64,000 nt of DNA from Vicinamibacteria bacterium (lineage in GTDB: Bacteria; Acidobacteriota; Vicinamibacteria; Marinacidobacterales; Marinacidobacteraceae). The notes under the pieces were generated by a model, which worked only from the letters and a program-made list of their open reading frames with translations, made no database searches and was not told the DNA's origin. The stretch covers positions 480,001-544,000 of the forward strand of contig CAXXLQ010000004.1 of the NCBI GenBank assembly GCA_963668695.2, read 5' to 3'. A program made the translations under genes and the position numbers. The first letter of the stretch is position 1. Every line of letters starts with the position of its first letter. Shown in pieces: positions 876-61,812 of the stretch.

Positions 876-1769
876 CTATCCGATCGCGGCGGTCCCGACC
901 TTCGGCCCCTCAACCACCACCACCACCACCACCGACCAGTTCCGTCCCACCCCCGAACCCTCGCGGCGATAGGAGTGAAACGCCGGATGGCACCGGGTGC
1001 AGAGCCCAGTGTCCTCGATCGCCTCCTCCCGCAGTCCCGCGTCGAGGAGCTGGAGGCGGTTCGCGAGCACCAGGTCGAGATGGGGTCTACCGCGTGACAG
1101 ACGGGCCTCCGCATCCGGCCAGAGCGCGATCCGGCCGATGTCGTGCCCGTCTTCGGTGAACGCGGAAACGACTTCGGGACCTACCTCGAAACAGCAGGCA
1201 CGGATGGAGGGGCCGATGACGGCCGCGAGCCGCGAAGGAGGGGCGCCCGCCTCCGCGGCGAGCGCGCGGGCCGCCTTCCCGACAACCCGCACCAGCGTGC
1301 CCCTCCAGCCCGCGTGAACTCCCGCCACCGCGCCGGAGACGGGGTCCGCGAGCAACACCGGAACGCAATCGGCGGCCTTGATGGCGACGCCGGTGTTGGC
1401 GGAGCAGGCGATCAGCGCATCCCCCGGAGGTGGAGTCGGGTACCGCGCCTGATCGGCCGCTACCTGCACGCGGTCCCCGTGCACCTGCCGCAGGGAATGG
1501 AGGACATGCGCACCGGTGGCGTGTTCAAGGAGTTCCAAATCTCTATCGGCCTGGTCCCGGACTCCGAGAAACGGGGCGTCCGGCTGCCGGTTCCGTACTC
1601 GGCAGGTGAAGCCGTGGAGGGCGGGGAAGCGCGCGGAGACGAGCGCTTCGATCGGCTCTCCCGAAGTGGACGCGTTCGCGGCGCCGGACCCGAACTCCTG
1701 CCAACGGAAGCCGTCCGGAGGATCGGGAAGAGTGAACCGCGCCGGCAGGGCGTCTGCGTCAGACGTCAT
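876..1769 (-). CDS. pgeF: PgeF/YfiH peptidoglycan editing factor (laccase-domain purine nucleoside phosphorylase)
   Basis: Motifs QVHG, ADCVP, HAGWRG, IGPSI..CCFEVG, LCT, SYRR; downstream of ftsZ as in many dcw clusters. Confidence 0.9.
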   Translation of the reverse strand: MTSDADALPARFTLPDPPDGFRWQEFGSGAANASTSGEPIEALVSARFPALHGFTCRVRNRQPDAPFLGVRDQADRDLELLEHATGAHVLHSLRQVHGDRVQVAADQARYPTPPPGDALIACSANTGVAIKAADCVPVLLADPVSGAVAGVHAGWRGTLVRVVGKAARALAAEAGAPPSRLAAVIGPSIRACCFEVGPEVVSAFTEDGHDIGRIALWPDAEARLSRGRPHLDLVLANRLQLLDAGLREEAIEDTGLCTRCHPAFHSYRREGSGVGRNWSVVVVVVVEGPKVGTAAIG

Positions 1770-1882
1770 GTTGTCGAGCGCCGAGCTGGATGGCGGCAGG
1801 CACGTCCGTCATTGCGGGGAACACGGGCGGGAGGGCCATCCGTACGATCCAGGCCATGTCTCTCGCCCGCCTCCGGCGGGCT

Positions 1883-2030
1883 GTGCCGGTCTGGAGGCCC
1901 CCACCGGGAGGACTGGCCGGCGTTCCCTCCCGGCGGCACCACGGGGATGTTGAGCAGTGCGCAGTCTCGCTGCGCTTCGCGCAGCGGTGCCGGCCCCCGC
2001 CGGGAGAACTGGCCAGAGGTTGGCGTTCCC
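1883..2030. repeat. Two REP-like (family B) hairpin repeats, each carrying a 19-bp micro-insertion
   Basis: GTGCCGGTCTGGAGG[CCCCCACCGGGAGGACTGG]CCGGCGTTCCC and GTGCCGG[CCCCCGCCGGGAGAACTGG]CCAGAGGTTGGCGTTCCC. Confidence 0.75.
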
Positions 2031-2119
2031 CGGCCTGAATCCCGCAAGGGCAGACAGCAACGCGCCGTTCCGCGGCCCTGCGGGCCGCGGGTGCCGACCG
2101 GAGGTCTATACCCTTCGGA

Positions 2120-2335
2120 CTTCGTTTTCTGGGCCCTCCGGTGTGAGAGGCACCGAAGGGCCCTACTTCACCAACCTGTTAGCCGATCCGCCGGGAGCAA
2201 CCAACCGGAGGCATGTGTTTCGAACACCTACGCCGGACTGTGCCTCGACGGATCTTGGCCGTGATGGAACGCACGGTAGAAGGGCAGCGCCATCGAGCAG
2301 CCAGTATAGGCCCCAGCGAACATCACGGCGGCTGA
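2120..2335 (+). ncRNA. IS110 bridge RNA: 5' hairpin, target-binding loop and donor-binding loop
   Basis: Hairpin 2131-2163. Stem GATCCG/CGGATC (2185-2254) encloses ACCGGAGG (= left target) and ACGCCGGAC (= revcomp of right target). Stem GCCGTGATG/CATCACGGC (2258-2329) encloses GGTAGAAGG (= element right end) and GTATAGGC (approx. revcomp of element left end). Exact RNA ends are not known. Confidence 0.85.
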
Positions 2336-2374
2336 CTTCCCTCGGGGGGCTTCCCTCGGAAGGACAACAGCGCC

Positions 2375-3622
2375 ATGACATCTCCTTTTCTGTTTTTCGT
2401 CGGCATCGATTGGGGCTCGACGACCCACCATGGATGCCTGCTGGAGGCGAACGGTTCGGTTCGCGGCAGCCGGGCCTTTCCCCACGGCGGCGCGGGCCAG
2501 GCGGAGCTCGTCCGCTGGCTCCTGGACGAGACCGGGGCCGCCCCCGGGCAGCTCGCGGTCGCCATCGAGACGCCCCACGGGCCGGTCGTCGAGGGCTTGC
2601 TGGTCGCCGGCTTTGCGGTGTTCGCCATCGGTCCCGCCCAGATCCGCGGCTCCCGGCGCCGCTACGTCTCCTCCGGGGCGAAGGACGACCCCCGCGATGC
2701 CTGGATGCTCGCTCGCGCCCTCCGCGCCGACCCCGACCTCTTCCGACGGGTCGAACTCGAGAAGCCTCTCGTCCTCCAACTGCGCGAACGCACCCGGACC
2801 ATCAACGAACTCACCTGCCAGCGCACCCGGCTCTGCCACCAGATCCGCCAGCAGCTCTGGCGCTACTACCCCCAACTGCTCGCGATCCCCGACCTCCTCA
2901 ATCAACTCACCCACCCCTGGTTCCGAGAGCTCTGGAACAAGGCCAAAACCCCCGCACTCGCCCTCAAGCTGCGCGTCTCCACCCTCGCCAAACTCCTCAA
3001 AAAGCACGGCATCCGGCGACTGAACGCCAAAGGCCTGTGGGAGATCCTGCACGCCCCCGCGCTCACCGTCGCCCCCGGAGCCGCCGAGGCCGCCTGCCGC
3101 GCCCTCCAAAGCCTCTTCGCCCAGGCACACACCACCAACCAACTCCTCGCCCAGGCACGAGAAGACGTCCGTGAACTGCTGAAGGCCTTCTCCCAGGCCC
3201 ACCCCGACGACGAACGACCCGACGACATGACCCTCCTCCGCTCCCTCCCCGGTGTCGGGGGCTACGTCCTCAGCACCTTGTTCGCCGAAGCCTTCGACCT
3301 CTTCCAACGCCGCGACTACCCCGCCCTCCGCGCCCGCTCCGGAGTCGCCCCCGTCAGCATCCAGTCCGGCAATACCCGCTGGGAGATCCGCCGCCTCGCC
3401 GTCCAGCACGAACTCCGCAACGCTCTCTACCACTGGGCCCGCGTCGCCGCCGTCCACGATCCCCTCAGCAAAGCCCGCTACCGCGCCCTCCGCGCCCGCG
3501 GCCACTCCCACGGACGCGCCCTCCGCACCGTCGGCGACCGGCTCCTCGCCGTCGCCTGCGCCATGCTCAAAAACGGAACCCTCTACGACCCGAAGCTCTC
3601 CCGAGACAAGCTCGCCGCCTGA
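2375..3622 (+). CDS. IS110-family transposase / bridge recombinase
   Basis: N-terminal FVGIDWG, AIETP, KDDPRDA (DEDD RuvC-like fold); C-terminal SLPGVG and PVSIQSG catalytic-Ser region; GGAAGGA RBS. Confidence 0.95.
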   Translation: MTSPFLFFVGIDWGSTTHHGCLLEANGSVRGSRAFPHGGAGQAELVRWLLDETGAAPGQLAVAIETPHGPVVEGLLVAGFAVFAIGPAQIRGSRRRYVSSGAKDDPRDAWMLARALRADPDLFRRVELEKPLVLQLRERTRTINELTCQRTRLCHQIRQQLWRYYPQLLAIPDLLNQLTHPWFRELWNKAKTPALALKLRVSTLAKLLKKHGIRRLNAKGLWEILHAPALTVAPGAAEAACRALQSLFAQAHTTNQLLAQAREDVRELLKAFSQAHPDDERPDDMTLLRSLPGVGGYVLSTLFAEAFDLFQRRDYPALRARSGVAPVSIQSGNTRWEIRRLAVQHELRNALYHWARVAAVHDPLSKARYRALRARGHSHGRALRTVGDRLLAVACAMLKNGTLYDPKLSRDKLAA

Positions 3623-3861
3623 GCAACTCCTCCAAAGAAAAAAGGATCTTCAAGGTGAGCCGGTGGGAAGTGTGGGAAACGCGCCCCTCTCCGCCGCGGC
3701 CGGCGAACAACCGCCGCCGTGGTGCCGCGTTTTCCAAGTCCTGGGGAAATCGCTTCCCGCCCCGCCGGCCCCCGAAGCCCAAACCCACCTCCCATCCCGA
3801 TTTCCCCGGGACGGCACTTTCCACCGGATACCGAGCACCCGCCCGCAGCCCTCCTTCCCCC

Positions 3862-3867
3862 TTGACA
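3862..3867 (+). promoter_or_regulatory. Outward-facing -35 box at the IS110 right end (half of the circle-junction promoter)
   Basis: TTGACA 15 nt before the junction; after right-end/left-end joining it lies 17 nt from TACCCT (2109-2114). Confidence 0.75.
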
Positions 3868-3941
3868 AAAAGGTAGAAGGTCCGGCGTTCCCTGACCTTC
3901 GCGCCACGGTGCCGGCTGGAGGCGGGCGGTCCCTTGCCCCC

Positions 3942-5669
3942 CTACCGCCGGCGGTGGAGGTAGGCAGGCGTATCGAGGTCGCCCCACCGGTCGTCTCCCA
4001 CATGCCCGGGGAGGGACATGGGCTCATCGATTACCAGCCGTGAGCTGCCGGCGCCCGGAGCACTCGCGGCACTTTCCTGGCCCGCCCCGGGGTCGCTTCC
4101 CATCGCTTCCGCGCGGTCGGTCCCGGAAGCGGCGATGGTGGGACGGGTCCCGAGTTTCGGGATGGTCCGGCCGACTCTCACGGTAGCGGCCGCATCGGCC
4201 TGGGCCACCGGCCCGGACCGGCCGGACGCGGGGGTCGCTCCCCGGGCTCCAAACGTACCGGTCGCGCGGTTCGTGAAGCGGGCGAAGTCGTGAGGGGTCG
4301 CTCCCGCTCGGCTTCGGTCGGGGAAGCCGGTGGCAACCACCGTAACCTTGATCTCGCCCGTCTTGTCCATCGCCGGGTCGAGTGCGGTCCCGATCAGGAC
4401 GTTGTCTCCCGGTTCCGCGTCCGCGGATCCGTAGATTCCCGTCGCTTCGGGAGCCACCGCGTCGCGGACGACCTCAACGGCGCGCTGGACCTCGTTCAGC
4501 GTGAGGCTCTCACCGCCCGTTACGTTGACGATGATGCTCGACGCTCCCTTGATCGAGGTGTCCTCGAGCAACGGCGAAGAAATCGCCGCTTCGGTCGCTT
4601 CCTCGACGCGATTGTCGCCCGAGGCCTGTCCAATGCCCATCACGGCGTCGCCGCGGAGCCGCATGGCGGAACGAACGTCGGCAAAGTCCAGGTTGATCTC
4701 TCCCGGCACCTGGATCAGGTCGGAAATTCCCTGAACGGCCTGGCGCACCACATCGTCGGCACACCGGAACGCGTCCCGGATCTTGAGGTTCCCGTACACC
4801 TCCACGACCCGGTCGTTCGGGACGCAGATGAGGGTATCCACAAACTCGCGGAGTTCCCGGATCCCGTCGTTGGCGGTCGTCTTCCGGCGCCTGCCCTCGA
4901 CGGTCATCGGCTTGGTCGCCACCGCGACGCAGAGGGCCTTGATTTCCTGGACCACGCAGGCGATCACCGGCGCCGCGCCGGTGCCGGTGCCACCTCCCTC
5001 ACCCACGGTGATGAAGACCATGTCGGCGCCCGCCAGCGCGTCGATGAGCAGGTTGATGTCGTCGCGCGCCGCCGACCTGCCGACTTCCGGATCGCCGCCG
5101 CAGCCGAGCCCGCCGGTGCGCTCGCTTCCCAATTGAATCTTCACCGGGGCCTTTGACAGTTCGAGAACCTGAGCGTCGGTGTTCGCGGCAATGAACTCCA
5201 CTCCGGTCACCCCGGCCTCGATCATCCGGTTGACAGCGTTGCCACCGCCGCCGCCGACGCCAATGACCTTGATGACGGCCCGTCTTTCCTGCACGTCGTC
5301 GGGAGCCGCCGAGGGCGGTTCCGCCGTCACGGCGGGCGGGGCGCCGGTCGTGGACTCGACTTCCTCCGCTTCAGCCGGTGGCTTCGTGTTCGTGGCGGCC
5401 GGCTCCTCCACCGCCACGGATCGTTCGGCACGCTCCCAAGGCGCGGCTTCCGGCGTCGCCGCCTCCGGTGTCACCGCCTCCTCCGGGTCCGCAGACTCGT
5501 CCTTGGGGGCAGCGCCCGCGCTGGCAAAGAGCGCCGGCTGGACGGCGGGCGGGGACGCCGCGGCGGCCTCCGGCCGCGAGTCCTCGGGCGGCGAGGACTT
5601 CTCCGTTTTCGGGATCCCGGCTTCGGGATCGCTGGCCTTGGGCGTCGTTTCTTCGGCGAAGAAGATCAT
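3942..5669 (-). CDS. ftsZ: Cell division protein FtsZ with long low-complexity N-terminal extension
   Basis: IKVIGVGGGGGNAVNRM, GGGTGTG tubulin signature, INLDFAD, C-terminal LDTPAYLHR; AAGGAG RBS before ATG 5669. Confidence 0.95.
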   Translation of the reverse strand: MIFFAEETTPKASDPEAGIPKTEKSSPPEDSRPEAAAASPPAVQPALFASAGAAPKDESADPEEAVTPEAATPEAAPWERAERSVAVEEPAATNTKPPAEAEEVESTTGAPPAVTAEPPSAAPDDVQERRAVIKVIGVGGGGGNAVNRMIEAGVTGVEFIAANTDAQVLELSKAPVKIQLGSERTGGLGCGGDPEVGRSAARDDINLLIDALAGADMVFITVGEGGGTGTGAAPVIACVVQEIKALCVAVATKPMTVEGRRRKTTANDGIRELREFVDTLICVPNDRVVEVYGNLKIRDAFRCADDVVRQAVQGISDLIQVPGEINLDFADVRSAMRLRGDAVMGIGQASGDNRVEEATEAAISSPLLEDTSIKGASSIIVNVTGGESLTLNEVQRAVEVVRDAVAPEATGIYGSADAEPGDNVLIGTALDPAMDKTGEIKVTVVATGFPDRSRAGATPHDFARFTNRATGTFGARGATPASGRSGPVAQADAAATVRVGRTIPKLGTRPTIAASGTDRAEAMGSDPGAGQESAASAPGAGSSRLVIDEPMSLPGHVGDDRWGDLDTPAYLHRRR

Positions 5670-5709
5670 GGATTCGCTCCTTGTTCTTGGGGTGGCTGCA
5701 GGGCGCCCC

Positions 5710-5896
5710 GTAGCAGTTCGTGGATAGAGTGACGTGAGCACCGAGATCGGCGAGGCGCCTGGCTGACAAGGCGCGCGAGGGAGGAATACCCGGTGTATTT
5801 CGACCGACGCGCAACGATGAGCGACGCGAAGCGGTGCTGTTCAGCCAGGATGCATCGCCGGTCGAATGCCGCGTGACTCTGTTCACGGGCTGCTTC
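5710..5896. mobile_element. MITE family A copy (187 bp) between ftsA and ftsZ
   Basis: Imperfect TIRs CAGTTCGTGG...TCACGGGCTG; conserved core GGCTGACAAGGCGCGCGAGGGAGGAATACC..GTGTATTTCGACCGA. Confidence 0.85.
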
Positions 5897-21974: not shown

Positions 21975-22200
21975 CCACCGCGGCCCGGAGGTCGGAAACG
22001 CCGACCGGTTCTCGCGGTAGCGGCCTTCAGACCGGCACCGGCAGCCCGGAGGTGAGGAACGCCGGGCAGTCCTCCCGGTGGGGCCCTTCAGACCCCCACC
22101 GGGAGAACTGGCCGGCACCGCGGCCGCAGGCCGCGAAACTCCCATCGCCAACCGCGAAAAAGCGCGGGGACGGCTGGAAGCGCCGACCTCTGGTCGGCAC
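21975..22200. repeat. Cluster of REP-like family B units (BIME-like), with two 19-bp micro-insertions and an empty IS110-type target
   Basis: GGCCTTCAGACCGGCACC units; revcomp of 22181-22200 is GTGCCGACCAGAGGTCGGCG. Confidence 0.7.
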
Positions 22201-57308: not shown

Positions 57309-57431
57309 CTGTCGCCCCCGCGAAGGTCAGCGGCGGCGACATCGCGGCCCTCTCAGGCCGCGATGTCGGCACCGCAGGTCGGCGTTCCCTGCCCCGGCCG
57401 CGTTTCACGCGGATCAGGACTACGCGCTCCC

Positions 57432-61667: not shown

Positions 61668-61812
61668 CGGCGTTCCAAGCCGTCCCCGCGCTTCTTCGCG
61701 GTCGGCGATTCGCGCTCTCGCGGCCCTGCGGGCCGCGCGGTGCCGGCCTGAAGACCGGCGTTCCCTCGCCCTCGCGCCACCCTTCTGACCGGGGGTCGGC
61801 GTTCCCTCGCCG
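61668..61812. repeat. REP-like family B cluster (empty alleles)
   Basis: CGCGGCCCTGCGGGCCGCGCGGTGCCGGCCTGAAGACCGGCGTTCCCTCGCCCTCGCGCCAC. Confidence 0.75.

Follow-up and report, generated by a model that had tools for sequence, protein, structure and literature searches.

The element and its locus

The 64,000-nt window analysed here (G000:C4:480001-544000) lies in a 3.9-Mb contig of the source genome G000, an acidobacterial assembly of 4.1 Mb in 4 contigs (67.5% G+C, 92% complete, contamination estimate 9.3%). In the spacer between ftsZ and a pgeF-like gene, the window carries a 1777-bp insertion sequence of the IS110 group, which interrupts one unit of a multicopy repeat resembling repetitive extragenic palindromes (REPs; Table 1). 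The insertion point lies 59 nt downstream of the ftsZ stop and 338 nt upstream of the pgeF start, and the gene calls on both sides are intact, as the preliminary description of this DNA had stated. The left end of the element contains four short segments that match the interrupted repeat and the element's own ends in the manner of bridge RNA guides. Judging from these features, this is very probably an intact IS110-group element that works like IS621 or ISPpu10 and is likely still active.

The intact 415-aa recombinase matched PF01548 (N-terminal DEDD, RuvC-like domain; E = 4.1e-27, residues 9-166, full profile 1-155) and PF02371 (C-terminal Tnp domain; E = 8e-13, residues 286-370). Its similarity to solved bridge recombinases was distant, although significant (ISCro4, 2.6e-8; IS621, 1.3e-7). 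The LRSLPGVG motif aligned with the conserved serine motif LESIPGIG of ISCro4, and we take its serine to be the catalytic one.

The interrupted repeat consists of a variable GC-rich hairpin, followed by (G/T)GTGCC, a second hairpin and GGCGTTCC. The second stem is kept by paired changes among sub-families (GCCGGTC/GACCGGC, GCCGGTG/CACCGGC and GCCGACC/GGTCGGC). An nhmmer search with a profile built from 86 seed copies yielded 377 matches in G000 at E ≤ 0.01, of which 258 reached E ≤ 1e-4; 12 copies fall within the window. In a crude test of our own for coding potential (an open frame with third-position G+C, GC3, of ≥ 0.8 on both sides), only 2 of the 258 copies lay in coding-like frames versus 815 of 2000 random segments, in agreement with the earlier view that the repeat is abundant and extragenic. 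The repeat is thus short, multicopy, imperfectly palindromic and extragenic, as are REPs. A search for the REP-associated tyrosine transposase (RAYT; Y1 transposase, PF01797) gave 0 matches in G000, which is 92% complete, and the control was positive in 6 of 14 genomes; we therefore refer to the repeat as REP-like.

Table 1. Positions and strands of the features discussed, in window coordinates
Feature	Position	Strand	Basis or content
IS110-group insertion sequence, 1777 bp	2107..3883	+	Equally 2106-3882 (one C ambiguous); delimited by an X1 (public run) contig and by 13 copies with other flanks
TACCCT, −10-like hexamer	2109..2114	+	Read from the letters; putative promoter role
5′ stem-loop of non-coding RNA (GGGCCCTCCGGTG / CACCGAAGGGCCC)	2131..2163	+	Minimum free energy (MFE) fold; conserved in all copies
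Target-binding domain	2184..2257	+	Closing stem, left target guide (LTG) ACCGGAGG(C) 2204-2212, inner hairpin, right target guide (RTG) ACGCCGGAC 2230-2238
Donor-binding domain	2258..2329	+	Closing stem GCCGTGATG / CATCACGGC, left donor guide (LDG) GGTAGAAGG 2275-2283, right donor guide (RDG) GTATAGG 2304-2310
Recombinase gene, 415 aa, intact	2375..3622	+	PF01548 + PF02371
Right non-coding end	3623..3883	+	−35-like TTGACA 3862-3867; terminus ...GGTAGAAGGTCC
Left half of interrupted REP-like unit	2064..2106	+	nhmmer hit 2064-2105; same left half before 10 of 13 copies in G004/G008; GC-rich hairpin ~2071-2088, GGTGCC, left target ACCGGAGG 2097-2104, target core TC 2105-2106
Right half of interrupted REP, then further partial REP unit	3884..3945	+	Right target GGCGTT 3884-3889; nhmmer hit 3885-3945
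Two long-family REP units directly upstream of interrupted unit	1860..2038	+	nhmmer
pgeF-like gene	876-1769	-	Cu-oxidase_4 domain
ftsZ	3942-5741	-	Tubulin + FtsZ_C domains
Near-cognate empty target (ACCAGAGG TC GGCGCT)	22179..22194	-	2 mismatches in 16
Near-cognate empty target (ACCGCAGG TC GGCGTT)	57371..57386	+	1 mismatch in 16
Uninterrupted REP unit of another sub-family (loop CCTGAAGA)	61709..61780	+	No guide match; reference copy of the preliminary description
Near-cognate empty target (ACCGGGGG TC GGCGTT)	61788..61803	+	1 mismatch in 16

Ends, empty sites and copies in relatives

The locus was compared with contigs from the public runs X1, X4, X8 and X10. One contig of X1 (1323 nt long, its shorter side measuring 207 nt) represents the empty allele: it joins window position 2105 to 3883, skipping 1777 bases with 1 base ambiguous, and differs by one other letter in the flanks. 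The insertion was therefore scarless, and the element has no terminal inverted repeats. The empty site reads ...ACCGGAGGTCGGCGTT..., giving ACCGGAGG-TC-GGCGTT as the target. Exact copies of this 16-mer with a single C numbered 7, 129 and 223 in G000 and its congeners G004 and G008, respectively, versus 4, 1 and 0 copies of the 17-mer with TCC (ACCGGAGGTCCGGCGTT); a reversed control gave 0. Orthologous empty sites were also sought by comparing the flanks of 12 copies in relatives with G000 using BLAST. Flank pairs were obtained for five, of which only that of L015 (L-numbers denote loci in relatives) was clear: the G000 orthologue of this occupied site is an empty REP reading GGAGGTCGGCGTTCC, again with a single C. 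At the locus of L013, the entire REP is missing from G000, and the rest matched repeat arrays. The spacer between ftsZ and pgeF was free of the element in all five congeners, and that of G008 contains an exact empty target.

Since the X1 allele, the L015 orthologue and the 16-mer counts all have a single C, the extra C belongs to the element (2107-3883); the donor has the core CC, and the target has the core TC. GTCC closes the right end of the window element and of every sister lineage. With a single-C empty site, the direct repeat AGGTC (2102-2106 and 3878-3882) reflects for the most part a chance resemblance between target and right end and is not a 5-bp duplication. The preliminary description had reconstructed the empty site by removing the element and had taken AGGTC as the split point. 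Its reconstruction aligned over the whole length with the repeat at 61719-61780 (1 gap and 7 mismatches in 62 columns), so the flanks were correctly recognised as two repeat halves, but it contained one C too many, and the split point has to be abandoned. For annotation, the ends and the core of the element are fixed, and the apparent 5-bp duplication is misleading.

It might be argued instead that the target is the TCC form, with TC as the core in both donor and target and an element of 1776 bp flanked by a TC (apparently AGGTC) duplication. Under this reading, the RTG would pair perfectly over 8-9 nt (GTCCGGCGT), and G000 does hold four exact uninterrupted TCC sites. It seems improbable, however, given the single C in the X1 empty allele and in the G000 orthologue of L015. 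Moreover, G008 has 6 copies with this junction and yet 0 TCC sites versus 223 single-C sites, and all sister lineages end GTCC, begin TATA and have an RTG reading GT+CC+RT. The TCC-form REP units of G000 are located at C4:223410, 807083, 1461356 and 3479587; an occupied site that underwent deletion between its AGGTC direct repeats would have exactly this form, and the four units may be footprints of lost copies.

Scored against the single-C target defined by the guides and the empty allele, G000 contained 7 perfect sites, compared with 0.006 expected from base composition, as well as 30 single-mismatch and 61 two-mismatch sites. None of the perfect sites is in the window, all 7 being elsewhere in G000. 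The empty sites of the window are only near-cognate, with one or two mismatches (Table 1). All seven places named in the preliminary description do hold a member of the repeat, but most belong to other sub-families, and only those at 57371, 61788 and 22179 come near the target. The original picture, an IS110 element in a REP-like hairpin with empty sites still present, holds, apart from the extra C with its split point and the exactness of the empty sites.

Of 41 genomes searched, 15 contained a relative, and 13 copies in G004 and G008 were compared in detail. The ends in relatives were set by eye and with regular expressions, as boundary finding by column identity was misled by the repeated flanks. 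G004 has 6 close copies (one at 98% identity, four at 93% and one split), and G008 has 7 at 91%; in G000 the element is single-copy, alongside three degenerate paralogous loci (36-38% identity). In 13/13 copies, CGGCGTTCC comes after the right end ...GGTAGAAGGTC, and in 12/13 a REP left half ending AGGTC stands before the left end TATACC.... Ten of these 12 left flanks read GCCGACCGGAGGTC, and two, which are long-family units, read CTGCCCAGAGGTC; rve-like sequence interrupts the thirteenth (L023). Every readable copy therefore occupies a REP, and none of the 13 sits in unrelated sequence, as had been anticipated for an element that targets the repeat. Target abundance and copy number rise together, with 7, 129 and 223 perfect sites versus 1, 6 and 7 copies in G000, G004 and G008. 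One G004 copy is 98.7% identical to the window element over positions 1-1776. Because this identity far exceeds that of the flanking genes, it suggests a recent exchange between the two genomes.

Several further variations were observed at these loci. The spacer between ftsZ and pgeF holds 3-4 REP units in the window; in G004, the closest relative, it measures only ~130 nt, contains REP remnants and lacks the array (L026), while the flanking genes are 89-90% identical (window 1770-3941 versus L026). REP arrays thus appear to turn over faster than genes. A long form of the element (L014-L022, L024 and L025, in G004 and G008) has ~330 bp separating the tip TATACCTTTCC.. from the 5′ RNA hairpin. 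This insert includes the inverted repeat TTTTCCTGCTTCCGG / CCGGAAGCAGGAAAA, and a GC-rich module inside the insert recurs in the lineage D right end (see below); it is absent from the window copy and from L013, and L013 (short) and L025 (long) share flanks. In L023 (G008 C1:1836018-1838662), the left end is replaced up to ~10 nt before the T-run of the RNA by a sequence whose translation resembles the C-terminus of an rve-type transposase, which looks like nested or abutting mobile elements. At window positions 3686-3726, contigs of X1, X4 and X10 carry a right-end variant in which 41 bases are replaced by one A, within a long inverted repeat (GGGAAACGCG... / ...CGCGTTTTCC). Finally, two contigs of G000 carry one and the same degenerate IS110 paralogue together with its REP flank (C1:137109-138124 and C4:310725-311742), which may reflect a real duplication or assembly redundancy.

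Guide segments of the left end

Guide and REP targeting rules were drawn from PMC11208160, according to which the LTG and LDG of a bridge RNA correspond to top-strand sequence, in the left target and the left donor respectively, and the RTG and RDG of IS621 are complementary to the top strand. All four segments were found in the left end. The LTG ACCGGAGG (2204-2211) is identical to the left flank, namely the 8 nt before the target core; the RTG ACGCCGGAC is the complement of the right junction GT+CC+GGCGT. On the donor side, the LDG GGTAGAAGG is identical to the right end of the element, and the RDG GTATAGG is the complement of CC+TATAC, the left-end sequence. The guides are 8, 9, 9 and 6-7 nt long in the order LTG, RTG, LDG, RDG, and all abut the junction. 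They lie at 2204-2312, upstream of the recombinase ATG at 2375, which is the position typical of the IS110 group (downstream in the IS1111 group). The right end as a source of guides gave no better matches (7, 8, 7 and 6).

The left end folds into a 5′ hairpin and two stem-closed domains (MFE of −96.7 kcal/mol, z = −3.2, with 1 of 200 shuffles as stable). In a consensus of 10 left ends from five lineages, both closing stems are kept, and 5 of 28 pairs are compensatory, for example GATCCG/CGGATC, which becomes GACCCG/CGGGTC in G008. The closing stem of the donor domain is retained in 10/10 aligned sequences, and the guide segments are unpaired and variable. The scaffold common to all lineages reads CCGCCGGGAG ... 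GTGCCCCGACGG ... GGCCGTGATGG ... CATCGCGG.

When the target loops of the five lineages were compared with their left flanks in a 5 × 5 matrix, the diagonal gave 8, 7, 7, 8 and 9 matches and the off-diagonal cells 3-7, the diagonal being the maximum of every row and column. The RTG register GT+CC+RT was found in 8/8 elements with a known right end, and both RDG and RTG were in register in all lineages. Lineage A, which includes the window element, has the target ACCGGAGG|TC, lineage B GGAGCCC|CC, lineage C AGGCCC|CC in long-family REPs, lineage D GGCGTT|CC, which is the conserved GGCGTTCC tail of the REP of lineage A, and lineage E ATGGAGCG|CC. The earlier proposal of a bridge RNA programmed against an abundant intergenic repeat is thus borne out by the guide strings in the left end and by their change with the flank across lineages. 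The genus harbours at least five such IS110 lineages side by side (L031-L049; G000 C4:310868-311990), each with a different insertion position in the REP families. With guides redirected to various positions within these repeat families, the lineages form a natural reprogramming series.

Several observations weigh against this interpretation. The LTG does not pair with the target core (it has CA opposite the TC of the target), and the T preceding the core is not matched by the LDG. In the long form of G004, the LTG ACCAGAGGT mismatches 3 of 5 readable sites, although it fits its two long-family sites. A k-mer test against 2000 shuffles separated the guides poorly, with 528, 160, 25 and 169 shuffles reaching the observed lengths and 78 reaching all four; such matching of the left end does not discriminate in GC-rich, palindromic sequence. 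The case for the bridge RNA therefore draws on guide order, register and covariation. An Rfam scan of 1800-4100 (E ≤ 10) detected no bridge RNA family, giving three chance-level matches (E of 0.88 to 8.7). The RNA, the circle and the activity of the element are predictions from sequence, and the element is single-copy in G000 despite 7 perfect empty targets. In addition, no contig of X1, X4, X8 or X10 joins a unique flank to the element, so the occupied state is seen in the window assembly only, and X1 shows that the empty state exists.

This last point leads one to ask whether the placement between ftsZ and pgeF is an assembly artefact and the element resides in another REP copy of the same sub-family. 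The locus is empty in X1, the X1 contig with the element carries only 14 and 10 nt of REP flank, and the X4 contigs stop exactly at 2106 and 3883. However, contig breaks at repeats are normal for short-word contigs, the window belongs to a 3.9-Mb contig of a 4-contig assembly, and the presence of empty and occupied alleles in different samples is normal for a mobile element. We thus regard misplacement as unlikely. Still less credible is a passive association, in which insertion is unguided and selection spares only those copies that fall in harmless intergenic repeats. Extragenic sites are indeed tolerated, but every junction lies at the same nucleotide of the same repeat sub-family, and the guide strings match the repeat and change with the target in five lineages. 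Guided insertion into the REP-like repeat remains the favoured explanation.

Solo left-end inserts, a proposed mechanism and known systems

Some REP units carry just the initial ~57 nt of the element (TATACC.., the 5′ hairpin and ..CACCGAAGGG), placed in the same REP at the same left junction and followed by (T/C)C(C)GGCG. Three such solo inserts occur in G000 (C4:3527770-3527830 (-), C4:1498549-1498609 (+) and C4:788847-788908 (+)) and one in G004 (C1:2331662-2331722, L055), together with a shortened copy (C1:2503529-2503571, L069); none was found in G008. The right junctions differ by one base or letter among loci, and the inserts are therefore regarded as separate events. They stop at GAAGGG|CC, a site inside the element that belongs to the 3′ arm of the 5′ stem-loop; this site is similar to the true right end (..GAAGGT|CC) and has a 7-nt match to the LDG. 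The inserts may be scars of partial excision or microhomology deletion; alternatively, they may be small modules moved in trans, the internal site half-matching the donor guide.

The three G000 loci (C4:3527770, 1498549 and 788847) and the G004 locus that hold a REP with the first 57 nt and no more could also be taken to mean that the left boundary is wrong, the target being a REP variant already holding the insert and the element beginning at ~2164, but this is barely tenable: the start at ~2164 was rejected on the X1 empty allele, which has no such 57 nt, the paralogous lineages share one layout (TATA.., ~22 nt, 5′ hairpin, TACTTCA.CAAC) behind different flanks, and the long form, with its ~330 bp between tip and hairpin, still begins TATACC after the REP. 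The left boundary at 2107 is therefore retained.

The ends of the element suggest how it might be expressed and mobilised. TTGACA (3862-3867) is 16 nt from the right end and would be 18 nt from TACCCT once the ends are joined; in the integrated state, the hexamer at the corresponding upstream position is CGCGGG. Across the joined ends of lineages B and C, the sequence would read TTGCGT or TTGCAT, 17 nt, then TACGAT or TAGGAT. Such a layout would correspond to the hybrid promoter already described for IS621 and ISPpu10. Upon circularisation, the right end (...TTGACA, 16 nt, ending GGTAGAAGGTCC) would meet the left end (TATACCCT...), thereby building a promoter that could transcribe the ~210-nt bridge RNA and the recombinase gene. 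By its sequence, the target loop reads the REP-like hairpin GCCGACC-GGA-GGTCGGC and the donor loop the element's own joined ends. Recombination would be catalysed at two core nucleotides of the hairpin's 3′ arm (TC for the target, CC for the donor), and each insertion would keep TC at the left junction and CC at the right. As the target is a multicopy extragenic repeat, insertions fall between genes.

The T of the target is kept at the left junction in the 13 full copies, the window copy and 4 solo inserts, and the C of the donor is kept at the right junction in all 14 full copies. This asymmetry would fit one-strand exchange followed by replication. The fuller proposal, that this order of strand events explains the asymmetry and that the 57-nt solo inserts are the smallest non-autonomous IS110 derivatives moved in trans, is speculative, and we consider it rather doubtful. 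If true, the junction asymmetry would lend support from natural history to the single-strand copy-and-paste model put forward for IS621. Strand order and half-match recombination could be probed cheaply through the mismatched core and the solo inserts.

Targeting of REPs by IS110 members is already established, and the window element adds a member. It represents known behaviour (IS621, ISPpu9/10) in another host and not a new kind of system. Its value lies in being a well-resolved natural bridge-RNA element aimed at a host repeat outside Proteobacteria, with an empty allele and 13 further copies. According to PMC11208160, IS621 is inserted into REP elements at 144 of 173 sites, these being its natural targets, and has a −35 in its right end. 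The window element resembles it in its DEDD and Tnp recombinase, its left-end bridge RNA with a 5′ stem-loop and target and donor loops, its REP targets and the putative −35 in the right end. In contrast, similarity between the proteins is only distant, the core is CC/TC here versus CT in IS621, the donor and natural target cores differ here at the first position with the LTG unpaired with the core, and the host belongs to an acidobacterial lineage of metagenome-assembled genomes, whereas that of IS621 is E. coli.

In Pseudomonas putida, as described in PMC12288879, ISPpu9 is inserted in REPs, its parts occur alone and form circles of their own, and the ISPpu10 circle forms a hybrid promoter. 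The study 10.64898/2026.03.19.712850 reports all ISPpu10 insertions in copies of one REP and a GC-rich stem-loop 5′ of or over the target whose structure is better conserved than its sequence. Insertion into copies of one REP, a GC-rich stem-loop at the target and element parts that occur alone are shared features, and a hybrid promoter across the joined ends is predicted for the window element. The REP family and the host phylum differ, RAYT was not found in G000, and the solo module here is a 57-nt left-end tip, unlike the downstream small RNA gene of ISPpu9. For expanded IS110 loci, 10.64898/2026.08.14.744561 and 10.64898/2026.08.31.748434 describe partial excision products and boundaries at sites matching half of the bridge RNA. 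The internal GAAGGG|CC, matching the LDG over 7 nt, and the long form with ~330 bp of extra DNA are reminiscent of these loci, although kilobase cargo and laboratory reactions are concerned there and four short genomic inserts here.

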